Assembly: GCA_024679065.1 (NCBI GenBank)
Contig: JAGIQG010000040.1
Span: 8,680,001-8,744,000 of the forward strand
Length of the DNA stretch: 64,000 nucleotides
DNA from: Sphyrna mokarran
Lineage: Eukaryota
Reading direction: 5' to 3'
The notes under the pieces were generated by a model, which saw only the letters and a list, made by a program, of their open reading frames with translations, was not told the origin of the DNA and made no database searches. Within the stretch, counting starts at the first letter, position 1; the number at the start of each line of letters is the position of its first letter. Below, in pieces: positions 1,850-51,049 of this stretch. Made by a program: the position numbers and the translations under genes.

Positions 1850-4800
1850 ATGGCAGGAATCTAACCTCAGGCGGGAGAAAAATGTGACAACAATGAGAAG
1901 GGAGGTGGTCAATGCAGGATTGAGTGTACTGGACTGAAATGCGTGCAGTGTATTGGACAAGGTAAATGAGCTTGTTGCACCCATTGAAATTGGCCGATAC
2001 GATGTTGTGGGCATCACAGAGACGTGTCTGCCAGGGGATCAGGGCTGGAATCTAAATATCTAAGAATACAAGTCCTAGCAAAAGGACAGGCAGGTGGACA
2101 AAGGGGGCGGTGTTGCATTGTAAGTAAGGAATGAAGTTAAAACGATTGCAAAAAGTGATATTGGATCAAAAGACATAGAATCTCTCTAAGTGGAGTTGAG
2201 GCCCTGATGGAAGTTCTGTGCAAGCCCGTCCTAGCAGTAGTTAGGATGTGAGCAGAAAATACATAAGGAGATAGAAAAGCGTATTTAAAAACAACAATAT
2301 TAGAGTAATCATGCGGGACTTCACTATGTTGGTTGGCTGGGACAATCAGGTAGGTAGTGGATCTCAAGAAAGTTTGTGGAATGTCTATTTTTACTGGAGT
2401 AGCTTGTGACAGAGCCGAGAAGGGAACATGCAATTCTGGATTTGGTGCTGTGTAATGAGATAGACTTGATTAGGGAACTTCAGGTGAAGGAACCCTTCGG
2501 AAGCAGTGACCACAATTTGATAGATTTACCCTGCAGTTTGAGAGGGAGAAACTGGAGTCTGATGTAACGGTATTAGAATTAAATAAAGGTAATTACAAAA
2601 ACATAAGAAAAGAACTGGCCAGAGTTGATTTGAAAGACAGCCTAGCAGGGAAGACACAAACTTGAAGCAGGAGTTTTAGAGGCACAACAGAAATTCAGGA
2701 GGCACAACAGAAATTCATTCCAAGGAACAGGAAATATGTCACAGGGAGGATGAGGCATCCATGGCTGACGAGAGAAGTCAAAGACAGCATCAAGGCAAAA
2801 GAGAAAGCATAAAAAGTGGCAAGTTTAGTGGGAAGCCAGAGGATCGGGATGTATTTAAAAGCGAGCAGAAGACAACTTATAAAAAAAGGAATGGGGGTGG
2901 GGTGGGGCTAGAGAAGTTAAAATATCATGAAATATGAGTGTAAGCTGGCTAATAATATAAAAGGAGATCGGAAGAGTTTTTTTTTCAATATATAAAAGGT
3001 AAGAGAGAGGCAAAAATAGCCATTGGGCCACCAGGAAATGAGGATGGAGAAGGAATAATAGGAAACAAAGAAATGGCAGAGGAACTGAATAGTTACTTTG
3101 CATCCGTCTTCACAGTTGAACACACCAGTGGCATGCCAGAGCTCCAGGAGAGTCGAGGGCACAGGTGAATGTAGTGGCTATAAGTAAAGAGAGGGTTCTG
3201 GGGAAACTGAAAGATCTGAAGGTGGATAAATGAACTACACCCCAGGGTTCAAAAAGTGATAATTGAGGAAATTGTGGAGGTGTTGGTGGTGATCTTTCAG
3301 GAATCACTGGAAGCAGGGACAGTACTAGAAAGCCGGAAAGTAGCTCATGTAACAGCGTTGTTTACGAAGAGAGGGAGCAGCAGAGGGGAAATTATAGGCT
3401 GGTTAACCTGACTTCGATCATTTGCAAGATTTTAGAGTTCATTAGAACATAGAACATAGAACAATACAGCACAAACAGGCCCTTCAGCCCACGAGTTGCG
3501 CCGATCACATCTACCAATCCACAGACCTATCTATAACCCCCTATCCTATTCTTTTCCATATACTCATCCAGAAGTCTCTTAAAAGACCCCAGTGAGTTTG
3601 CCTCAACAACCTCCGACGGCAGTCGGTTCCATTCACTCACCACCCTCTGAGTGAAAAACCTACCCCTGACATCTCCTTTGTATTTGCTTCCCTGCACCTT
3701 AAATCTGTGTCCTCTCGTAGTGACCATTTCAGCTCGGGGAAATAGTCTCTGAGAGTCCACCCTATCTATTCCTCTCAACATTTTATAAACCTCTATCAGG
3801 TCGCCTCTCAACCTACGTCTCTCCAGTGAGAAGAGTCCCAGCTCCCTCAACCTATCTTCATAAGGCCTGCCTCCCAATCCAGGCAGCATCCTTGTAAATC
3901 TCCTCTGAACTCTCTCAATAGCCTCTACATCCTTCCTATAATGAGGCGACCAGAACTGCGCACAATACTCCAACTGGGGTCTGACAAGAGTCTTATAGAG
4001 CTGCATCATTACCTCCTGACTCCTAAACTCTATTCCTCGATTAATGAAGGCCAGTACACCGTACGCCTTCTTGACCACTTCCTCCACCTGCGAGGCCGAT
4101 TTAAGAGTCCCATGGACCCGGACCCCGAGATCCTTCTGCTCTACAACACAGCTAAGACTCCTACCACTTATATTGTACTCCTTCATCCCATTATTCCTGC
4201 CAAAATGGACCACTACACATTTATCTGCGTTGAAGTCCATCTGCCACTTCTCCGCCCAGTCTTGCATCCTGTCTATATCCCGCTGCAACTTTTGGCATCC
4301 CTCCAGACCATCCACAACACCACCGATCTTTGTATCGTCGGCGAACTTGCTAACCCATCCCTCCACTTCCTCATCCAGGTCATTTATGAAAATGACAAAC
4401 AGCAGGGGTCCCAGAACAGATCCCTGGGGCACTCCACTGGTTACCAACCTCCACGCAGAACAAGACCCATCCACAACCACTCTCTGCCTTCTGCCGGCAA
4501 GCCAGTTCTGGATCCACGAGGCCAAAGCCCCTTGGATCCCATGCCCTCTCACCTTCTCCAGAAGCCTTGCATGTGGGACCTTATCAAACGCCTTACTAAA
4601 GTCCATGTACACTACGTCCACCGCCCTTCCTTCGTCAATGTGTTCAGTCACATTTTCGATGAACTCAACTAGGCTCGTAAGGCATGACCTGCCCTTGACA
4701 AAACCATGCTGACTATTTCTAATCAGTCCAAACTTCTCCAAATGTTCATATATCTTATCCCTCAGAAGCCTCTCCATCAGCTTACCAACCACTGAAGTCA

Positions 4801-12603: not shown

Positions 12604-13378
12604 TAAGCTTTTTCCTAGGATGGACTCGAATAGCACGAGGGGTCACGGCCTCAGGGTGAGGGGGGTAAGGTATAATTTGGATGCTAGAGGGAGTTTTTTC
12701 ACACAGAGGGTGGTGGGCGTATGGAATGCACTGCCCAGTAAAGTGGTGGAGGCAGGTACTCTGGAGTTATTTAAGAAATACTTAGATGGGCACATGAACA
12801 GAATGGGAATGGAGGGGTATAGAAAACTGATTTAAAGTAGGGATCATGAGCCTTGGGAGTCCCTGGGAAGTGTGTAAATAGACGACGATATTCATGTACT
12901 TGTTTTTATCCTACAGGTGCTTTGGTCCACCTTGTTGTCTAACAAGGGGCATACACGCGATGGGTCATGAGAGGACTGCTCTTGAATCTTTTTCGAGAGT
13001 ACCCTAGTGCTTCACATTGTTAGTGTATGCTTGACCTGGACCGTCTGATGGGCAACACGACAGCTCAGTGACTATCGCTGTGCTGTGCAGATACATGGAT
13101 TTGGGCCTGTGTCGGTGGGAGTTTGCTCATTCTCCCCGTGCTTGCGTGGGTTTTCTCCAGGAGCTCCGGTTTCCTCCCACATCCTAAAGATGTGCTCTTA
13201 GGTTAATTGGCAAAATAAATTCTCCCTAAATTGTCTCAAATTTGGTTTTTAATCCATAGATCTATAAACATGGACAGGGGTCGTGGGTAGAGGTGGGAAC
13301 ATCGGGGTGGCGGCGTGGGCTCGTTGGGCCGAAGGGCCTGTTTCCCATGCTGTTTTGTTCTTTGTTCTTTGTCCTTTG
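12604..13378 (+). mobile_element. Long-3'UTR CR1, copy A
   Basis: ORF2 end (TRGHGLRVRG...FFTQRVVGVWNALP...RKLI*), a ~540-nt 3' UTR and a (TTCTTTG)n tail. Near-identical to copies C and D. Confidence 0.88.
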
Positions 13379-14671: not shown

Positions 14672-15615
14672 TCACTGTGCTTTCCAACATAATCCAGGAA
14701 ATGAATGTGTGATGTCTCGTGTTTGAACGCGTTTGACAATCATCATCAGAGGATATTTAATACAGTTCCCTAACTCCTTTCTGAATTGACTCTGAGTAAC
14801 AGCATAAATAAAAGTGTTTGTGCAGCAGCTCAGGAGCTGGAGCATGAAACCAATTTCAGGTACAAATGTGGGCACATGAACTGAATATCCCAAGTAATCC
14901 AATCGTCTCACTATCGAACAGGACATAAACAATGCCCACAGCAGCATGAAATTCCCTGAGATTAGAAATAGTAAGACCATGGATTTCCGTCGCCTTCCCA
15001 TTTCTGGGTCATTGGAATTCTCGCCACTGCCCCGAATCTGGAGTCTCATGCGAGCCCTGCTGGCCAATAAGACGCTTCTGACCGTCAATACATTGAACAA
15101 TAAAATCAATACAAATGGTATAAACGGTGTTAAAATGTAATGCGTAAATTCAACAAGAGCCCAGGCCAGTGAGTGAGATGCATGAGGCAACACGTTGCAA
15201 AACCAAGGTGTGTTTGAAAGCCAGTACTTACTTGCATACAGAAAATACCAAAAAATGTTCTTCAAACAGCTCAGCACCGTCACTGTGACGAGAACCACAG
15301 TTGCTGTTTCTTCAGTGCAGTATTTAGCTTTTAGCTTCTGACAACTAATGGCCACAAATCGATCAAAGGTGAAAGTGACAGTGAACCAGACAGAACAGTC
15401 AGTGACGGCGTAAAGGACAACTGCGTGGATGTTACACACTCGAATGTACAACAGGAAAGTAAATTGCTCTCGATACACAATGGGAATATGCCTCAGGATT
15501 AGGTCAATGATGATTATCAGTAGATCAGCCGCTGCCATGGCAACCAGATAACGAATCACACACTTGGAGAGGCCACACTTTCCGCGAGACAAGATCACTA
15601 TCGTCAGCGTATTAA
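14672..15615 (-). CDS. GPR139-like class A GPCR, exon 2 (most of the 7TM)
   Basis: Acceptor ttctcctgcacacag|TT AAT ACG, then an open frame VNTLTIVILSRGKCGLSKCV...AMAAADLL...FTFDRFVAISC...LSCCTNTFIYAVTQ to the stop at 14672. Hydrophobic segments and DRF/NTFIY motifs are typical of elasmobranch 'probable GPCR 139' paralogues. Confidence 0.88.
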
Positions 15616-16055
15616 CTGTGTGCAGGAGAAAACAGAATGAAACTATCCAGCAAATTAGTATTAAAGTTTATTTACTAGTATCACGGGTAGGCTTATGTAA
15701 ACACTGCAATGAAATTGCAGTGAAACCCATGCAAGAACAAAAGAGACGAAAATGTCTTAGGTCACGTGTCAACTAACTCATAGAATCCCTACAGTGCCAT
15801 TCAGGTCATTCAGCCCATTGAGCCTGTACCAACCACAATTCGACCCAGACCTTATTCTTGTCATCCCATGTATCCTCACTGCTAATCGAGGAGGTTCTGT
15901 AATCCAATAGTGAACTAACAATATATTTGTGGTGCTCATAATTTCACGATGGTCAGGGGTGTGATGGAATGGTCCCCACTCGCTCGGATTGGTGCAGCTT
16001 CAGAAGCTTGACACCATCCAGAACAAAACAGCCCCGCTTTATTGACACCACATTA

Positions 16056-17725
16056 GCAAGAACAAAGAGCAACACAGCACAGGAAACAGGCCCTTCAGCC
16101 CAACGAGCCCGCACCGCCGTCCTAACGTCTTAATGACATATCCATGAATTTAGGCTATGCCTATTGTGGAAGATTCCCATATAGGGACCAATATAGGGAC
16201 AATTTGTTACCCAATCAGCCTAAGACCACATTTTTGGGATGTGGGAGCACCCGGAGAAAACCCACACAACCACGGGGAGAACGCGCAAACTCCCGCAGAC
16301 ACAGGCCCAAATCTATGTGTCTGCACAGCAACAGCGATAATCTCTGAGCTGTCACGTTGCCCATCAGATGGTCCAGTTTAAGCATACACTAACGACTTGA
16401 AGCACTAGGCCACTCCTGAAGCAACATCCAAGAGCAGCCCTCGCACGACCTGCCGAATGCATGCACCTTGTTGGTCAACAAGGTGGACCGAATTGCCTGT
16501 GGAAACAAATAAGATATTTAGACAGTCCTGCTATATCCCTCTATCTGCAAACCGCTCATGTGGCTGTCCAAGAGAGCCTTAAACAACCCTAGCGTGCCTG
16601 CTCCCACCACCTTACTCGGCAGTGCATTCCACACCCCCACTACCCTTTGTGTGAAAAACTGCCCTCTAATATTCGTCTTATACATAGCCCCCTCACCCTA
16701 AGGCCGTGACCCCTCGTTCTATCCATTTCTAATGGTGGAAAAAGCTTACCACCATTTACTCTATCTATACCCCTTATAATCTTATATACCTCTAATAGAT
16801 CCCCTCTCAGCCGACGTCTTTCAAGGGAAAACAACCCCAGTGTGTTCAATCTTTCCTCGTAAGACAGCCCTTCCATACCAGGCAGCATCCTGGTAAATCT
16901 CCTCTGCACTCTCTCCAAGGCCTCCACATCCTTCCGGTAGTACGGCGACCAGAACTGGACGCAGTACTCCAAGTGAGGCCTAACCAACGTTCTAAACACT
17001 TGCAACATCAGACTCCTACTCTCGTATTCTATGCCCCTTCCTATGAAGGCTAACATACCATACGCTTTCTTTATCACATTCTCCACCTGTACTAACATCT
17101 TCAGAGACTTGTAAACCTGCACCCCCAGGTCTCTCTGCGTCTCTATACTCCGGATAGTTTTACCTTTTATCCTATAACTCCCCTCTACATTATTCTGGTC
17201 AAAATGCATCACCTCGCATTTATCCAGATTAAATTCCATTTGCCATCTATCTGCCCAATCTACCAGCCTATCTATGTCCTGTTGTATTGCCTGGCACTGC
17301 TCCTCAGTACCCGTCAATCCAAGCATCTTAGTGTCATCAGCAAATTTGCTGATTACACCACCTACCCCCTCTTCCAAGTCATTTATATAAACCACAAATA
17401 GAAGAGGTCCTAGTACTGAGCCCTGTGGCACACCACTAGTGACAGACCTCCTGTTGGAAAAAGAGCCTTCCACTACTACCCGCTGTCTCCTCCTCCCAAG
17501 CCAGTTCTCAACCCATCTACATACCTGGCCCTGTATCCCATGCGCCTTAACCTTTTCTATCAGCCTATCATGAGGAACCTTGTCAAACGCCTTACTGAAA
17601 TCCATGTAGACGACATCAACGGCTTGTCCTTCATCAACCGTTTTTGTCACCTCTTCAAAAAATTCCACTAGATTCGTAAGGCGCGAGCTCCCCTTAACGA
17701 AGCCATGCTGCGTATCCCTGATCAG
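16056..17725 (-). mobile_element. Long-3'UTR CR1, copy B (diverged subfamily), in the GPCR intron
   Basis: RT frame in ORF 16640-17797 (QHGFVKG, YMDFSKAFD, FADD), and a 3' UTR homologous to copy A. It splits an older LINE (LDTIQ...|IHSLHHRR..VCAIYKMHC, about 15940-16055 and 17726-18115). Confidence 0.9.
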
Positions 17726-18119
17726 ATCGCAGCAAACATCCACTCCCTCCACCACCGACGCACAATAGTAGCAGTGTGTGCTATTTACAAGATGCACTGC
17801 AGCAATTCACCAAAGATCCTTAGACAGCACCTTCAAAGCCCACGACTGCTTCCCTTTAGAAGGACAAAGGCAGCAGATACATGGGAACACTACCAACTGC
17901 AAGTCCCATTCTAAGCCACTCACCATCCTGAATTGGAAATATATCGGCTATTCCATTGCAGTCACCGGATCAAACTCCTGGAATTCCCTCTATAATGGTA
18001 TTATGGGTTAACCCACAGAACACGGACTGCAGTGATTCAAGAAGGCAGCTCACCACCACACTCTCAAGGACCTACGAGGAATGGGCAATAAATGCTGGCC
18101 AGTCAGCGATGCCCATATA

Positions 18120-22935: not shown

Positions 22936-23573
22936 TCGTCGTCTTTCATTTAAAGGGCTAATGTTCAGTTAAGAGGTAAAGTTCAGTTGAGAGTTTATGA
23001 GTTGTAATGAATTTCATCAGGCAGTTGAGGTTAGCCCGCTGGACGGAGTAGTTCAGGGGTGGCTTTCCATACACACCGCCTCCCTTTCCACCCCTGCCAA
23101 CCTCAACTCGGCCGAACATCTGTAAGGTGTAACTCTCGTACTTAATTACAGGCATAGGACAGCCCCCACCCCCATCTCCGGCTAGCATTGGAAATAACCT
23201 GGGAGGGGATGCCCTGGAAAGCTGCAGATAATCGATAATCTTTATCCCCAGCGTAATGGAATCGTTTGTTATATTATTGCGTGAAATTAATTGCTGTTCT
23301 TCCTGAGAACAACAGTAGAGTTCCCACATCTTTAAGAAAGGGGATTTTATTTGAAGACGCTGCTACGGTTAATTGCTTAAATGTCCAGCACCATTCAAGA
23401 CTGCATGTGGCAGAACTGTGATGTTAGATCCTACCTGTAAAAATTCGGATCAGAGTGATTGTGCAATATATACATTGACATGTATTTGTGCAATATTAAT
23501 TTAAACAATGTGTTATAATTCATTATAATCATAGACAGGACCCATTCTAACATACGTACATATGAACAGAATG

Positions 23574-37963: not shown

Positions 37964-39819
37964 CATAGAACATAGAACATTACAGCACAGAACAGGCCCT
38001 TCGGCCTTCGATGTTGCGCCGACCAATATAAAAAGCAATGACCCTCCAAACTAAACCATTCCCTTCTCTTCCATATACTTATCAACTAACCTCTTAAACG
38101 CCACCAAACTTGGCGCATCTAAACTGCCGCAGGAAGGGCATTCCACTCCCTAACCACCCTTTGGGTAAAGAACCTACCTCTGATATCCGTCCTATAACTA
38201 TCACCCCTTAATTTAAAGCTGTGTCCCCTCGTGCTAGCTTTCTCCACCCTAGGAAAAAGGTTATCACTGTCCAGTAGGATTATGGTAGAAGATAGAAACA
38301 CAGTAAACACATTCATTTCAGTTTGGTTTCTTTTTCATATGTCACATTTATGATGACTGAGGGGGATAATTTTTGAGAGATTGGTTCAAGTACAAGTGCT
38401 GCCCATGAAGTATCAGTTGTGTTGTAAATTGTCCTTTTCTATCTCATGAATGAGACAGAGAATTTTTGTTGGAGAGCTTAGTTCCCCCAAGTGTTATAGA
38501 CTCTGCTCTGATGCTAGCGTTGAATGTCTTACTGAGATTCATGAATGTATGTGTATTCAAAGGTCTTTCCCGTGATGCTATGATTGAGATACATCTACAG
38601 ATGTTGCTGTCTTCTCTGTTGGTCTTGTCTTCGGATAATGTGATGCTTTTGAATCACGAATCTCCTGTGGAACGGAATCTATCTTCTGGCAGAGAAAGAA
38701 TGTAAATGTTCAGAAAGTTGGTATTTATTTTCACCAATTGCCATCCATTGGCAAATGTGTTCACATCCATTTACAAACATCAATGCATTTAAGTTTTAAC
38801 TTAAGGGATAGGAACGTTGCTGGCTAAGTCAGCATTTGTTGCTTACCCCTAATTGCCCTTAGTAAGCTGGTGCCTTACTACCTTGTTGAATTGCTGCAGG
38901 TCCTGTTGTGTAGGTACCATACAAAGTTGTTACAGAGGGAGTTCTAGGTTTTCGATCCAGCGGCAGTGACAGAAAGATGATATGTGTCCACATCAGGTAT
39001 ATGACTGACTTAGAGGGTAATTTATAGACGATATTCTCTGATAACTATTCCCCCTGTCCTTGCAAATGGCAACCCACTGTATGGCTGCCTCAGGAGTCTT
39101 GGTGAGTTTCGGAAAAGCAAGTTGTAGATGGTACATAATGCTGCTCTCTGGGGTGGACGGAGTGAACATTTGCAAATGTTATGCCAGTCAAGCATAACAT
39201 GCTTGTTATGCTTTGTGATGCTTTGTTATGTTGCTTTGTCTTGAATGATATGGAGTATCTTGAATGTTGTGTGAGCTGTGCTTATTCAAGCAAGTGGAGA
39301 GAACCATTTTTGTCTCCTAATATGTGTCCTGCAGGTGGTGCACACTGTTTGGGGAGTCAGGAGGTGAGTTACTCACAACAGGCTGACCTGATATTCCAGC
39401 CGGAGCATGTATATATCTAGCTAACATAGCGATTAGCCAATGGCAACCTCGAAGATATTGATAATGGTTGATTCATTGTCGTAATATAATTGAGTGTCAA
39501 GGGATAATGGTCAGATTCTCCATTTTTGGAGATGGTCATGGCCTGGCGCCAATATTACTAATGATCTTCCATTTACAAAAAAACAAAATTAATATTTCAT
39601 CAATTATCGTCAGTATTTTATTTTGATTCAAACTTAATTGCAGTTTATTTAATATCATTTATTGAGACTCAGATGTATTGAGATCATATTGCCCTTTCTG
39701 TCACCAAAGAATCAAACCTGTTCCAGAATTCAGCGGAAAATGGAATTAAATCAGGCCAAATAGTAGTAATTACCCAGCAGCCTCTGCACTTTATTGGCAA
39801 GGAATCACCTCATCATCAG
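37964..39819 (+). repeat. Recent segmental duplication, copy 2
   Basis: Matches 27046-29193 minus the extra CR1; begins with a minus-strand CR1 3' end (37964-38273). Confidence 0.93.
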
Positions 39820-42790: not shown

Positions 42791-42927
42791 GTGAGTTTTT
42801 TTTTATATTACTATTGTCCAAATCTCTCACTGTTACTGTCTCAATGTTAGTCTATCTCTGGAATGTTCCAGTGTCAGCAATCATTCCACTCAGACTAACC
42901 GTCGTTTTTTTTGATATATTTTTACAG

Positions 42928-43232
42928 GTGTCCACTCGGAGATTGTATTGACTCAGCCAGAGGCTGACACTGGATGTCCCGGAGGCTCCCTGAGACTGAC
43001 CTGTAAAACCAGCGGCTTCGATCTTGACAGCACTTACATGAACTGGATCCGACAGGTTCCCGAACAGGGGCTGGAGTGGCTGGTTGGCTACAAAAGTCCA
43101 TCCACCAACAGCTACACTCCAGCAATTCAGGATCGCTTTACTGCGTCCAAAGACACTTCAAACAACATTTTCTCTTTGGAAATGATGATGCTGAAGACCC
43201 AAGACAACGCCATCTATTACTGTGCAAAAGGC
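42928..43232 (+). CDS. IGHV: IgM VH exon (germline, unrearranged)
   Basis: tttacag|GT GTC CAC TCG; [29 protein letters not shown]...[14 protein letters not shown]...[15 protein letters not shown]...AIYYCAK. The conserved Cys, Trp and Cys are present. Confidence 0.96.
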
Positions 43233-43271
43233 CACAGCGAGAGGAACCAAGGGTGGACCCGAACAAGAACA
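43233..43271 (+). promoter_or_regulatory. VH 23-RSS
   Basis: CACAGCG + 23 nt + ACAAGAACA. Confidence 0.92.
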
Positions 43272-43632
43272 GCTCGAGAGGGAATTCAGCAACTTCCATC
43301 ATAATCTGAGGGTCAGTATCTGTTTTAAGTATAATAATAGCGCCAGTGATCAGAATCAAAACACACACCATTTCTGACAAACCCAACCTAGTGAAAATCA
43401 AACCTTAAACCAAGAAAACACACAGACATAATGGGCTGAGATTGTCACTCTGTTTATATTTACTGTTAACCGTTTCAGCAGTTAAACACCTGGATATAAT
43501 GCTCGTTTTAATATTTCTGACACTTAAAGGAGCTGTTTCCGAATTGAATTTTGTAAAGTGTTGCATAAATTATAAATTAATCAAAAAATTTATTGTAGTG
43601 AATATTGAGTGACAGTACTGAACAGAGAGTGC

Positions 43633-43694
43633 AGTTTTTATGCGAGTGTGTGTCACCGTGATATTGAGCACAGTGACATCCTCATACAAAAACC
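43633..43694 (+). other. IGHD: DH1 segment (coding ATATTGAG, 43661-43668) with 5' 12-RSS and abnormal 3' RSS
   Basis: AGTTTTTAT-12nt-CACCGTG | ATATTGAG | CACAGTG-10nt(ACATCCTCAT)-ACAAAAACC. Confidence 0.88.
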
Positions 43695-44008
43695 TTAGAA
43701 AAAGTGATTGCTCAATTTGGTAATCAGTCTCATAGCAGGATTTTCAAAGTAAACGAAGCTTCATTGAAATAACGTGTAGAAGCAATACCTGTTTGTGAAA
43801 AGGTATAACAATCTTAAAAACCGTAAAATCTGTGTTGAACGATACGCCAAATCTAAATAGAGGGATTAAATACATTCTGATACCGTTGGAAATATAATGA
43901 AAAGGCAAGGTACAATATCTTGCTCATTCGCTCTTAGAAGAGGCAGAATGAGATTTTTGAGAGAGCAGTGAACTTAATCTCTGTATTTTACAATTAGCAG
44001 TCAGGCAC

Positions 44009-44076
44009 AGTATTTGTCATGCTGTATCTCACTGTGGTAACTGGGTAGCACAACAGTTACTGTCAATACAAAAACC
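44009..44076 (+). other. IGHD: DH2 segment (coding GTAACTGGGTAG, 44037-44048) with 12/12 RSSs
   Basis: AGTATTTGT-12nt-CACTGTG | GTAACTGGGTAG | CACAACA-12nt-ACAAAAACC. Confidence 0.9.
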
Positions 44077-44422
44077 CTCAGCACTAATTGATCAAGTCTG
44101 GATCAGTGCTCTGATTTACAATCCAACATTATTTACAGCGCTGTATTATTTACAATAATACAATAAACAGCGCTATTGTCCAGCACTGAACAATAGCGAG
44201 AATCAAATGGAAAATTTATGATAACTATTCAATTATCATTTGCAGTTTTCAACAACATGTTCATGTGATTCTCTGCAAAAAGAAAATTGGAGTCATTTAT
44301 GCAGAGAGAACGGCATCCACAAATACAATAATAATTTCACGAATATTAATTGACTTTGATTTTCCTCTGGTTTGTGAATATTTAAAATAATGGTAGTTTT
44401 TCTGTCTTTGTTTTTCAGAGCC

Positions 44423-44461
44423 AGTTATTGTATGACCTAACTAAGGGAATGTGGCTCTGTG
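44423..44461 (+). promoter_or_regulatory. JH 23-RSS
   Basis: AGTTATTGT + 23 nt + CTCTGTG (reverse complement CACAGAG). Confidence 0.85.
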
Positions 44462-44509
44462 ACTACTTTGACTACTGGGGACAAGGGACCATGGTGACGG
44501 TCACTTCAG
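44462..44509 (+). CDS. IGHJ: JH segment
   Basis: YFDYWGQGTMVTVTS with the WGxG motif and a G|gtaag donor. Confidence 0.96.
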
Positions 44510-45499
44510 GTAAGAACCATGCAACTATTTAGTGAATGTTTTACTTGAGCTTTTGTTTTAAGTTTTTTTTAAAATCGATTTTATTAATTCGTTCGTTCAC
44601 TGAAATGTTTGGTAGATTCTGTACTAAAAATCTTAAGAATGTTTCACCTGATTCTGCTTAATATGGGCGTTATAAAATTCTACTGTTAATTGACAAGGCA
44701 ATGCTGAGAGATTTAATCCTTGGTTGTTGTATTTTAGTGTTTATCTGCTGAGGGCATTGTTTGGCTGGGTTACTTTAAAAGTTATTGTCTAACTTCTGTT
44801 AAACAGTTCGACGTTGCTGCAATGTGTAAACTCGGTGACATCTAGTAGCTGCAGGTTGTATCATCTACTGGACACACATTTAAAATCGAACCCAATATTG
44901 ACAAAATATGTTAAAGATTCTGCATTAATTGAGTGATCATATTCCGCTTACTCGCAATGCTGGTATTGTTCTGACATATTTCTGTTCATTTTAATTATTG
45001 ATTAGTTTAGTGATGAATTGGATTGGTTGGATGTAAATTTGAGATTTTCTGTCAATGTTACATTTAATTCTGTTGAAATTGCTGTTTGTAGAATTGAGCT
45101 GCTTCTGCATGAAGCGGAGTTCAGTTATGTTTTTTTTCTGTTAGGAGATTGTGGGTCTGGGTGACTTTGAATAAGTAAATTTTTGAAATGGTTTGGCGAT
45201 TCTGAATTATTTAAACACGGTGACAATGAGCTGTTAGACACTTTGTGATTGAAGACAAACAGCCTTCGCGTCTGAAACTGCTTGACGCATGATTATAGGC
45301 TGAAATCAGGCGGACTTTATTCCACAGATATTTTTGAAAATCATAATTGATAATTGCTGGTTAAACCAAACAACAGTTTACGCCGTTTGTTCAGAATATA
45401 GTTTTGCCACTGCATTCATTATTTGGGTTACCTACAATGTTTACTCTGAGCAATGGCTGCAGCTTTTACAATACAAACGTTTCAATATGCTTGAAATAA

Positions 45500-45681
45500 A
45501 CATAGAACATAGAACATAGAACACTACAGCACAGAACAGGCCCTTCGGCCTTCGATGTTGCGCCGACCAATATAAAAGCAATGCCCCTCCAAACTAAACC
45601 ATTCCCTTCTCTTCCATATACTTATCAACTAACCTCTTAAACGCCACCAAACTTGGCGTATCCACAACTGCTGCAGGCAGC
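45500..45681 (-). mobile_element. Short young CR1 3' end in the J-C intron
   Basis: (CATAGAA)3 tail and CR1 3' UTR. Confidence 0.88.
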
Positions 45682-48600
45682 CAATACGAATAAATTTTCC
45701 AAATTAATTTCTTGGATATATTCTATTTCTTCACAATGCTATTGCTATTATTCCAGATTTCTGTTTTGTTTAATAATTCATGCATTTGGTGACGAGCTGT
45801 TTTGCTGCATTCGATATTGAGATTTTCTTGCAGTGTTGCATTTGATTATGCTGAATGAGTAATTGAGCTACTTCCTCATGAAACAGAATAATTCCCTCAG
45901 TGATGTGCTTTGCAGTGTTTCTGATCAGGAGATTTTGTGGTTCGGCCACAAAAGTTTAAAATTTGCGAAGTGATTTGATGTTTTGACATTGTTGATGCAT
46001 TGTTTAAACACGGAAGCACTGAGCGGTTATGCGTTTTCTGGTTGCATGCAAAGAATTTATAAATTTGAAAGCCCATGTAGTAGAAAGCAGGCAGGTTTTG
46101 CGAAATAAAAATTAAATAAATATATCACAACATCATGACTTACAAAGTTCATTTCGACATTAAGTCGTTGCAGCAATCACAAACTTCTCATTAAAAATTC
46201 GATCATAAAATAAAAATAAATCAAACAATTATTGATCATTAATATAATTCCATAATTACCAAACATTATTCTATATTAATATCATTATTCATTAATCGTC
46301 TCTAATAATATTGCTGCGCTTTGCAGACAATTAAAATGACCAGAAAAAATTTTCTAGGCTGCAAATATTTTTGTGATAATTCCAGAAACTATTTTAATGG
46401 TAACATGCTGTTTCCAGAACAGCGCTCAATTCAACAAGATACTTTGCATTAGTCGTTATATCCCAGATTAAGTTCGCATTCACTTAAATACGAGCTTTGC
46501 AAATAAGACGTCGTATTTTTGGCAATTTTTGTATGCAAGTATTACTTCTGTTTTTCTGTGCAGTCGCAATTATATTATCCCTTCCAAGTAATTTGTAATT
46601 GGATGCCGAGATAATTAATTACTAATCTCATCTCAGAATTTGTGAAATGGCTGAGGGTTTCTCAATTGTTTCTATATTGTTTCAACTCAGTGATACTAAG
46701 CACTGAGTTGTGATACTAAACATTACTTAAACTTAATGTTTAAGGCTAAATGAAAATACAACTACGTTTGAAAATTCTTGTAAGGATAAAGCAAAAAAGG
46801 TTTCAGAAAAATAAAATAATTACATGTTATAGCTTTTTATCTGTGTTAACTAATACTTGGATATTAAAATAAATCATGAATTATAATTCTTACTGTCATT
46901 GTATCGCCGTTAGAGACATAAGACTACCCAGTAAATGTTATATTTGATGTGCTCTTTTTCAGGGGTAAAAAAAACAAATACATTTTCCCTAGTTTTTGGG
47001 ATTTGTGATTGGCAGGGGAAAAATGTTAAAAGGCAAAGGGAATTTTAAAATGAACATCAGGTTAATTTATTTTTTACTGCTAATTTTGTTATTGCAATTT
47101 GACCTTTGATCAATTAGAACCACACGGTTTAAATAAATTTGACAGAGTGAAAAGAGTTTTCTGACAGATGGAATTCGCTGACAATCAAGTAATTCTTCAT
47201 ATGATTGTGTTTGAGTTGTAGTAAAGTGTTAACAGAAACTCGCTAGAGATTGACAAGATAATGTTTGAAATTCAAAAAGATTACTTTATATTAAAAAATA
47301 TAAAATAAATATTATAGAAATAGTATAGTATTATGTCTCCCATTACTGCTGAACACAGTATAGAATTATGGGAAGAATACATGACAGAATAAAACAATTG
47401 ATTCTGTCTGAACCTTACGTTAAATTCTTATTAAATATTATCATGAAGAAAAAGTCTGGATTTATTTCTGCATCATGTTTTAGTGCTACAGAGAATTGAA
47501 CCAATTGCCCTCTTTGTGTGGCACTGTTTAATTCAGATCTTCTTTAATAAAACAATGTGTTCAGTAATTAAGTTATACGATACTCCAAGTTATTAAATCT
47601 GGGAAGCAGTATTATGATTGCAAACTGCCAGGCCGTTACAGTCTAGACAAACTCGGAAGTATGTATTTTATCACTCATGTGATTAGGTTTAAGTAAATGA
47701 ATGATAGATGTCTGAATGTTTCCATTCTGTAATTTATAAATATTGTTTAACATTGTTTAAGATTTAATTGTTACCAAATAATTTAACAATGTTGGAGACA
47801 GAAGCACGTTTTGAATGATTGAATGATTTTATTACAGAGAAAATATTAGCTCACAGGAAATCTAACTAGCAATGAACAACAATTTTAAATATAATATTGG
47901 TGCTGATTAATTCAAAACAAAACACCTTGAATATTGCACAGGCGTACACAATATTATCCACTTTACAGAGTATTTAATTGTACCGAAAATGAATTCAGAA
48001 ACAGTACATTTATTTGCTCAGCTTGATAAGTACTTTGCCTTGATTATTTTGTTGATTTCATTTAATTAAGAAATTAACTCAATCAGGTAATGATTTACAA
48101 TGTAAGTATTTCTTGGTTTGTTTAATTCTTACTGTGTTACTGCATCTCTGTTGTTGACATTGAACCGTTATCGTATCACTGCATCTCTGTTAGACATTGA
48201 ACTGTCCCGAATCTGTTATTTTTGATTGCTCACCTTAAGGAACATTACATGTTTACATTGTTTTCGAGAGGTCAGTCAGAGAAATAATTAAAATAAATAT
48301 CAGTTTAAGTTAAAATAGGTCATTGATTTTATGTTGTTCTAAGTTGAATATTAATAAATTAAAATCTACAAATTTGAGTGAAATAGATAGATCTGGGTAA
48401 TCGACTGTTGCACCATTAGTGCCTGTTCTGTTTCTGCGCGTGTGATCACTGTGTTGGGACCAGGAATCTGCCTGACTTGTTGTAAATCTTTCGGTTCCTT
48501 TTGCTGTATTTCGGGGATGAAATTTGATTTATTTCTTCAAGAAACTTGTATCTGTGAAAAATGTGACAGTTTGACTTGATTTTTGACTCGGCGTCTCAGA

Positions 48601-49469
48601 TCCTTAAAGCATATTGTAACGGTTTGAGGGAGCAGAAACCTCAGGCTGTAGAGGGAGAATTGGGTCATTTTTAAGCAGTGATGTACCAGCCTTGGAAATG
48701 TTCGATGACAAATGCAAAGTAAGATTTATTATATTGTGCTCCGTACTACAGCAGTTCCTGGCCTATTTAGTATGACAGCTGAAGGGTCAAATTGATTTGC
48801 AATTTATTTTTAATCTTCTCGAGGCATTTTTGAGTCATTTGCTCGGCCAGAATTTTTAATCTTCCCTAATTGTTCCTTCACAATGTGTTGATATGAAACA
48901 TTCTTGAATGACTGCAATCCATATGCTGCAGGCATCCGCCCTGCTGTTAAGGAGGAAGTTTCAGGATTTTGACCGAGCGATTATGAATGAACTGAGATAT
49001 TGTTTCAAGTCAGGATGAAGTGTGTTTTGGAGGGGAGCTTGCAGGTGATTGCGTTCATATGTGACTACTGCCCTTGCCTTGTTAGCATGTAAAGGCAGCG
49101 GGTTTGGACAATATACTCTATGGAGCTTTGGTGAGTTGCGGCAGTGCATGTTGTATATAATATACACTGCTGACACTGCTTGTTAGTGATGGAGATGTTG
49201 AGGAGGGTGAATGAGAGGCTGGTAATTTGTGGGTGGCTTTTGCCTTGGATTGTGTCAAATTTCGTGAGATGTTACAAGTTTCGCTCATTGAAGAAAGAGG
49301 AAATCATTAATTGTGACTGACTTGTGAAACATTTAAATATTTTTTTTTCCAACCCTTGCCCTGGAGTCCGTATTTAGCTACTTGTCAGTCTCACTTACTG
49401 TGTGAGTGGGTGAGTATGTGTGGAGTGAGTGTTCTTTTGCAGACTGCATCAGCCAGATAGAGACTTATA

Positions 49470-50426
49470 TACATCACACAATCCCATATACACAAATACA
49501 TTCATACACGCACTCATATCCTCTCACACATGTACACACACATGTGCACACTTGCTTTCTCTCTCACACCATTCTCTTTCTCTCACGGTCTCCTTCAAAT
49601 ATAAATGCATACATACTCACGCTCTCTCAATTAGCTTCTCATACCCTCATACACAAAAGCACTCACACGCACATAGTCCCACACACATTCTCTCTTACAC
49701 ACAGACACATACACTCACATAAGCACAGCCTCCCGATTGCGCACACGCTCTGTCACACACACTCAAGATGTTTCACATTTATTCACCCACATTCTTTCAC
49801 AATTCATCTTGCACGTGCATCTTTCTCTCTCTCTCCCACGCATTTACTTCTATCTCTCTTGCACACACCATCTTGCACGTGTACATTCTTGCTCTCACAC
49901 ACTAGCTCTCTTACACTTTCTCAAATATACAGACCCATACACACACTCTAACACACAGACACAGTCTCTCACATAAGCACAAACTCACGCACACGTTCTC
50001 TCATACACACACACACACACACACAATTTGAAAAAGAGACACACTAGCACACACATAAACTATCCCTCTCACAATCTCTCATCTGTATTCTTACTCTGTC
50101 TCCCGCTCATTCACACGCTCTCTCATACTTGCAGGCGGATTCGCTCATTTAGGCACATGTTTCTCTCTCTTTCACACGCTCACTCCCTTACACATTGCCT
50201 CACACATACACAATCTTGCTCTCAATCACTCTCTCTCGCAAACACCCTGCTCTTACACGCACACAGTCTCTCCATTTCTTACACACGAATATACATGTAA
50301 ACACTCTTAAGGACTCCACCTATCACAGACGCATGTTCTCTCAACAATTAATACAGTCACATACACTCACGCAGCCACTGTCTAACTTTCACACTTTTTC
50401 TCGCTCATACACTCTCTCCCTGCCCT

Positions 50427-50466
<40 letters not shown>

Positions 50467-51010
50467 ACATACACGCACACACACACAATTTGAAGAAGAG
50501 ACACAGTCGCACACACAAAAACAATAACTCTTCAAACACTCTTTCTCTCTCACACACATACACACGCACATTCTCTATCTCACATGTCCTGTCTCTCACG
50601 CACACTCTCTGCTCTTGCACACACAGATCAGTGTTTCACACACTTGCAAATGTACTCATGTGTCAACAACGTCTCACTCATAGCGTCTCTCTCTCTCAAC
50701 ACACTCTCTCTGACACACACACACACACATACACACAGAAACACACACACACACACACACACACATTACTCCTATCACCCACAAACATTGCACATATCTT
50801 TCACACACACACAATCCCATGCACAGTTCCATTCACTCATGGATTATTTTGCTTTCCAATAGACACTCTATCTCCTCTTGTAAACGCAGCCTACCGTCTC
50901 GCACATATGCAAACGCAGTCTATCACTCACAGGCACACTCATACACACATTCACCCTCTCTATCTCTCTTGCACGCACACACATACACATAAATGCGCTG
51001 TCACACAGTT
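49470..51010. repeat. CA/CT-rich low-complexity tract in the J-C intron
   Basis: About 1.5 kb of degenerate (CA)n/(CT)n. Confidence 0.9.
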
Positions 51011-51049
51011 TCCATCTCACATACGTCAAAGTGACTGTCCTGAACATTA

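Follow-up and report, generated by a model that had tools for sequence, protein, structure and literature searches.

A candidate 3′ splice acceptor behind ORF2 of a CR1-type LINE in Sphyrna mokarran, kept in nine subfamilies and joined to the leader in one copy

Splicing of a LINE transcript followed by its retrotransposition has been described for human L1, where a donor near the 5′ end is joined to an internal acceptor; the resulting SpIREs, presented as dead ends, make up 131 of 6,609 full-length L1s (~2%; PMC5860796). Their splicing stays inside the 5′ UTR or reaches into ORF1, and ORF2 is retained (PMC5860796). Ty1/copia elements produce a spliced subgenomic Gag RNA lacking the enzyme region, which would match an ORF1-only RNA of the element described below; these are LTR elements with coupled early termination (PMC5580714), whereas no ORF1-to-acceptor junction was seen here. 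For sharks and rays, a pair consisting of the V-SINE HE1 and the CR1 LINE HER1 is listed in PMC3747384.

We analysed a stretch of 64,000 nucleotides of the S. mokarran assembly GCA_024679065.1 (contig JAGIQG010000040.1, positions 8,680,001 to 8,744,000), here called the window, which contains copies of a LINE with an acceptor-like site in its 3′ UTR. A copy of this family (L127) resembles the L1 SpIREs in that a donor near the 5′ end is joined to an internal acceptor and the spliced RNA was apparently retrotransposed, and also in the small share of such copies (~2% of full-length L1s in PMC5860796 vs. 1 of ~181 here). In contrast to L1 SpIREs, the element is of CR1 type, the acceptor lies behind ORF2, both ORFs are lost and the product would be a short structured non-coding RNA with a SINE core. 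L127 thus acts like a SpIRE but falls outside the strict definition: it is not an L1, it has no poly(A) and no clear target-site duplication. The preliminary description of the locus had suggested an undescribed LINE splicing system; for LINEs as such this does not stand, as splicing and subsequent retrotransposition are described for L1 (PMC5860796). Splicing of a CR1 or other non-LTR element at a 3′ UTR acceptor was not found in the literature searched, most subscription papers and Repbase being outside its scope. With HE1/HER1 the element may share a tRNA-type head, a V-like core, a CR1 tail and CR1-type ORFs; it differs in that the SINE body is located inside the LINE 3′ UTR, behind the acceptor and the fold.

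Organisation of the element and its 3′ module

Exact-pattern counts in the genome gave 20,820 A-type and 6,308 non-A matches (>27,000 copies). Two B copies have 4.7 kb in common from a shared 5′ end, and the full-length order is 5′ monomers, leader donor, ORF1, ORF2, spacer, acceptor, fold, SINE core and tail. The 5′ region is built of tandem ~200-nt monomers with a TATA-like box in each. In copies without upstream monomers the 5′ ends cluster ~30 nt past this box, and a donor, CTG/GTGAGT (slashes mark splice boundaries), follows 47-48 nt beyond the element 5′ start. At L084, L085 and L082 up to five monomers form an array, and every one of them repeats the TATA-like box, the start region and the donor; they resemble the monomers of mouse L1. 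ORF2 matches the Pfam families Exo_endo_phos (endonuclease, E 1e-11) and RVT_1 (reverse transcriptase, E 2e-32), and ORF1 is esterase-like, with a weak match to Lipase_GDSL_2 (E 4e-4) below the curated cut-off. Copies are 5′-truncated and carry (GTTCTTT)n microsatellite tails, as is the case for CR1-type non-LTR retrotransposons, and from this anatomy we take the element to belong, probably, to the CR1 clade.

A T-TTA-AAC heptamer directly precedes the ORF1 stop (e.g., L063:~4590-4610 and L343), and ORF2 is read in the -1 frame. This arrangement is present in 29 of the 41 A and B copies having both heptamer and stop, with a G-rich run after it, and a more distant CR1 family shows the same heptamer followed by TGA. 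Slippery heptamers of this type are a viral motif. Its position suggests that ORF2 may be translated by programmed -1 ribosomal frameshifting; nothing on a CR1 frameshift was found in the literature searched, which omitted most subscription papers and Repbase. A fused ORF1-ORF2 was also considered and is seen in L063 only, where a frameshift in that copy explains it.

Table 1. LINE copies in the window and parts of copy A.
Feature	Position in window	Strand	Details
Copy A, ORF2 3′ end (CR1, 5′-truncated)	12608..12835	+	stop TAA 12833-12835
Copy A, 81-nt spacer to acceptor	12836..12916	+	tract 12901-12912, ACAG 12913-12916
Copy A, branch-point-like TTCAT	12891-12895	+	A at -23; majorities of A, E, G have TTGAT
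Copy A, 7-nt linker GTGCTTT	12917..12923	+	first bases of putative exon; unpaired in consensus fold
Copy A, three-way RNA fold (predicted)	12924..13042	+	P1, P2 hairpin, long P3 arm
Copy A, degenerate tRNA-type SINE head and V-SINE-like core	13050..13189	+	
Copy A, CR1-type 3′ tail	13317..13371	+	ends in (GTTCTTT)n
Copy B, young subfamily B1	16058..17733	-	ORF2 end, spacer, acceptor, fold, SINE core, tail
Copy B, stop and acceptor	stop 16520-16518; AG end 16497	-	21-nt spacer; linker GCAATTC
Copy C, A type	23573..24200	+	acceptor destroyed by insertion 23698-23744
Copy D, A type	62034..63025	+	acceptor AG end 62575

The site at the end of the spacer has the features of a U2-type 3′ splice site, namely a pyrimidine tract, YAG/G and a branch-like A 18-40 nt upstream, the branch-point motif being yUnAy. 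By a crude score it ranks first among the 507 AGs of a full-length A copy and first among the 489 AGs of a full-length B copy. The ORF2 stop, spacer, AG and start of P1 reported for copy A in the preliminary description were all confirmed (Table 1), together with the AG of copy D and, for copy B on the minus strand, the putative exon start at 16496 and the stop-to-AG spacer. A fourth copy in the window, C, had been omitted from the earlier three-copy comparison; its AG is gone and a 47-nt AT-rich insertion stands in place of CAGGT. Copies A, C and D form one subfamily, A and D being 92% identical, and A and D are therefore not independent. Copy B belongs to a second, young subfamily (B1), and all 30 of its best 30 matches were 100% identical over 171 nt.

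Behind the linker, the predicted fold has z values of -2.7 to -4.4 in all four window copies. In a consensus of 19 related copies, 93% of the cells are paired and 6 of the 40 pairs are changed on both sides; RNAalifold retains P1 and P3 and loses P2, and the acceptor itself is unpaired like the linker. An Rfam search with the A and E folds gave no credible match. The SINE head and V-like core presumably resemble those of HE1, and a B-box-like stretch is kept in subfamily E alone and lost in the others. Across eight subfamily majorities almost no changes were seen in the V-like core, fewer than in the fold. Subfamily F is placed differently by the ORF and 3′ module trees, a discordance that hints at a possible module exchange. 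A coding exon past the acceptor was rejected, the frame being broken in A, F and B4 (by eye) and giving no Pfam match over the cut-off.

Conservation of the acceptor across subfamilies

Copies were sorted into nine subfamilies, A, B1, Bl, B2, B3, B4, F, E and G (G being 19 copies picked by pattern), with spacers of 81, 21, 103, 21, 21, 21, 21, 168 and 160 nt, respectively. That the spacer differs in length between copies A and B had been noted correctly; that it is unalignable does not hold throughout, since the A spacer aligns with the start and the end of the longer spacers in E (168 nt) and G (160 nt), which are older subfamilies. The short spacers therefore look like deletions. The 7-nt distance between AG and fold recurs in all nine subfamilies. 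Loss of the AG from other subfamily consensuses had been named as grounds for dropping the proposal; instead, CAG/G is invariant in the nine subfamily majorities.

Among the sorted copies the AG is present in 72/75 of A, 20/23 of E, 33/33 of the B group and 1/1 of F (3/3 in another set), counts that omit 15 copies left unclassified as well as loci retrieved because their acceptor is broken, and in which many A, B1 and E loci were chosen by likeness to an acceptor-bearing query. Unselected rows, scored by eye, retain the AG in 94 of 100 A-type and ~92 of 100 non-A cases. The long-spacer Bl copies L119, L120, L124 and L126 have CGG replacing CAG, which reflects either a recurrent change or a small branch amplified without the AG. 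In eight majorities, positions -3..+1 are unchanged and positions +2..+4 change two to three times each; 4-fold sites show 0.65 changes on average, 47% of them being invariant. The tract has 9-11 pyrimidines out of 12, the free -4 position varies, and TTGAT with an A at -23 is found in A, E and G. A ratchet based on AG/GT was discarded, as GT follows the AG in A, F and G only. Sister CR1 families with short 3′ UTRs (two groups, with 9 and 5 matches) showed no acceptor past the stop.

In neutral simulations on a nine-tip tree, the AG is kept in all tips with P=0.13-0.27; requiring YAG, the tract and the AG-free zone gives P=0.03-0.12, and adding CAG/G gives P=0.005-0.04, values to be read as those of a post hoc test whose AG-free criterion is broken by subfamily Bl (AG at -18). 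This comparison of sequences suggests that the acceptor may be under selection across subfamilies.

The processed copy L127 and use of the acceptor

In L127 (the same locus as L150 and G000:C882) the 47-48 nt leader, ending at CTG/GT, is joined exactly to CAG/G. The 4,134 nt skipped have GT..AG ends, with a 2-nt overlap at the joint. The 48 nt of the leader are 100% identical to the B1 leader, the 5′ end is the usual start of unspliced full-length copies, and the 3′ end is the element tail. When the 318 GTs are ranked by the crude score, the donor comes within the top 4; the acceptor is again first of 489 AGs. As the leader is joined exactly onto it, the acceptor likely works; it has one genomic record of use, and the exact junctions to seek in RNA are now defined. 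A short RNA keeping the fold and the tail, as had been predicted, agrees with this joint, whereas the predicted removal of ORF2 alone does not, both ORFs being absent.

L127 is one of 19 B1-type matches without A at -2, the others being point mutants, truncations or members of other subfamilies. All 35 matches to the leader without a following GT were inspected and its locus was the only join, giving a spliced rate of 1 in ~181 leader matches (146 leader-GT and 35 non-GT, monomer repeats included). No further leader junction was found with a wider non-A pattern (69 matches, 68 inspected besides L127), and none with an A leader among 70 A-type matches inspected (30 unselected, 40 picked) of the 100 listed out of 137. 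The spliced form is thus a single copy and does not constitute a many-copy SINE-like derivative family; the level of spliced RNA cannot be read from numbers of copies, since such RNA may be copied inefficiently in trans. RNA contigs of four runs showed no junction at the AG among 15 of 25 joints listed, an uninformative result, the contigs being assembled, probably in part from related species, and the runs holding 6-39% of the words.

As a control, we collected 16 internal deletions of >150 nt in 483 loci. None of the 13 ending elsewhere fits GT-AG, vs. two of the three ending at the acceptor, all three of which came from searches aimed at the acceptor. The join shared by L299, L309 and L356 (GAG/GTGCGA) fits GT-AG and shows 5-6 nt of microhomology in a rearranged locus. 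L403 was rejected as a splice product, since it ends at the acceptor with no GT donor; non-splice deletions can therefore also reach this position. Other candidates fell away on inspection: in L325/L357 the skipped piece comes after, one copy being inserted in another, and the flanks TAGCTG, GTACTG and AACCTG are unrelated to the leader.

The leader donor reads GTGAGT or GTGAGA in most matches and GTGTCT in B4, and is dead (GAGAGA) in most of the 35 non-GT matches, which are linked to subfamily B3. A GA past the leader, considered as a second acceptor, turned out to mark this donor-dead subfamily. The A leader has no strong donor counterpart, which leaves the acceptor of copy A without a demonstrated donor partner.

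The reading we favour, with our confidence evenly divided for and against it, is that the CR1 3′ UTR acceptor kept in nine subfamilies is real and rarely used, the module having been captured and weakly selected. Most transcripts would stay unspliced and retrotranspose, while a minority would be spliced from a 5′ donor to the acceptor; without either ORF, the product would be a non-coding RNA of ~500 nt that retains fold and tail. The element reverse transcriptase would copy this short RNA in trans only rarely, and the copies would be dead ends, as L1 SpIREs are. The element would have gained spacer, acceptor, fold and SINE at one time, by capturing the end of a host intron with the last exon, and the acceptor would since have been kept by weak selection acting on active elements.

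A programmed subgenomic RNA, in which a dedicated acceptor yields a selected short non-coding RNA or an ORF1-only mRNA, is entertained tentatively; a dedicated short RNA as such is possible. In the non-coding form the leader would be followed by the three-way fold, the V core and the tail recognised by the RT; in the ORF1-only form ORF2 would be one intron. Should the spliced RNA be a purposeful product, splicing would give the LINE control over its coding output, and the released short RNA would carry the V core, making this core testable. Otherwise, the findings would still amount to events of the SpIRE kind in a CR1 element and to a vertebrate genome in which strong acceptors are dispersed by the tens of thousands.

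We find it rather unlikely that the site is a neutral relic, that is, the undecayed end of a captured host intron, with L127 a cryptic-splicing accident and no selection involved. Survival of the AG in all lineages is compatible with such a relic at the simulated P of 0.13-0.27; moreover, only 9 of the 13 bases from -13 to -1 are common to A and B vs. ~79% in the background, the donors are not co-conserved, and there is one spliced copy among ~6,300 non-A copies. Yet the tract, YAG, the +1 G and the branch-like A persist where neighbouring positions change one to three times each, and the last 19-21 nt are spared by the deletions and by the Bl insertion, all of which lie further upstream, a pattern that alone is not significant.

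A second donor lies ~60 nt past the ORF1 stop, at the start of ORF2, with GT in 46 of 51 distinct A and B-group copies, and is more consistently preserved than the leader donor; it takes the forms AGG/GTAAGT, AGG/GTAACT and AGA/GTAAGC in a linker that is otherwise variable, and together with the acceptor it brackets ORF2. Programmed excision of ORF2 from this donor, yielding an ORF1-only mRNA or a functional short RNA, would have a precedent in the spliced Gag RNA of Ty1/copia (PMC5580714). We nevertheless consider it unlikely: no processed copy has the ORF2-start junction (0/19, 0/69, and 0/100 listed of 137), the GT is absent in the single F copy reaching the linker, the donor sequence is coding (R-V-S/T beside the ORF2 Met), and an excess of ORF1 protein would be expected in any case from the slippery heptamer next to the ORF1 stop.

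5′ ends at the acceptor and the surroundings of the window copies

A pile-up of 5′ ends at the acceptor, which had been proposed as a check for processed copies, was not observed: the frequency is ~0.17% per nt (scaled by a pattern capture of ~0.55, our own estimate) vs. a baseline of 0.1-0.3%. Foreign flanks at offsets 0 to -3 are found in ~17 of 30 unselected A-type matches. The baseline comes from 30 unselected A copies, five of which have their end in the 133 nt upstream (0.13% per nt), and from 100 A-type rows, of which 3-5 end within -5..-20. The 69 foreign flanks contained no recognised host exon, and 33 of them are repeats present at least three times in the collected loci. Stop-free frames from the remaining flanks (27) gave no Pfam match, in a weak test that would miss UTR exons. 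It is thus very improbable, and host-exon capture is not supported, that intronic copies act as a trap splicing host exons onto the tail-bearing module and making them retrotransposable, even though tens of thousands of copies carry a strong acceptor and mRNA/L1 chimeras at L1 acceptors, the products that exon capture predicts, are reported (10.1101/2025.02.02.635956); none was recognised here. That 37 of the 69 foreign flanks end in AG would suit such a trap, but is expected, as the search patterns admit truncation 2-3 nt upstream. Copies may nonetheless be exonised now and then in host RNA.

Several foreign flanks reflect no truncation but other LINEs whose tails are inserted at the acceptor. 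Such tails, at or near it, were seen in L041, L185, L187, L191, L333 and L338, and the sequence there resembles the tail repeat; the acceptor region may be a favoured insertion target.

That the AG and its 7-nt spacing are kept for the fold or for self-cleavage, and not for the spliceosome, would fit the conserved fold and the fixed spacing and is most improbable, given that the consensus structure leaves both acceptor and linker unpaired, that no Rfam ribozyme matches, that cleavage would pile up 5′ ends at one base, which is not seen, and that compared by eye with HDV-like ribozyme motifs the fold has neither P1.1 GG nor a direct P3-P1 link.

The window also holds an IgM-type immunoglobulin heavy-chain cluster (42915-61230, plus strand) with a V segment, four C1-set exons, a secretory tail and one membrane exon at ~61.1 kb. 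Copy D was considered as an exon trap in this gene and rejected; it lies 3′ of the membrane exon and also 3′ of two AATAAA, and by its position is probably outside the IgM transcript. On the minus strand, an open frame of 331 aa (14675-15667) matches rhodopsin-type 7TM proteins (E 2e-15), and LINE copy B is located ~400 nt upstream on the same strand, where its acceptor could join a transcript of this frame. Finally, a 1.5-kb duplication (27052-28571 and 37964-39482, 98.6% identity) starts in a LINE tail region.
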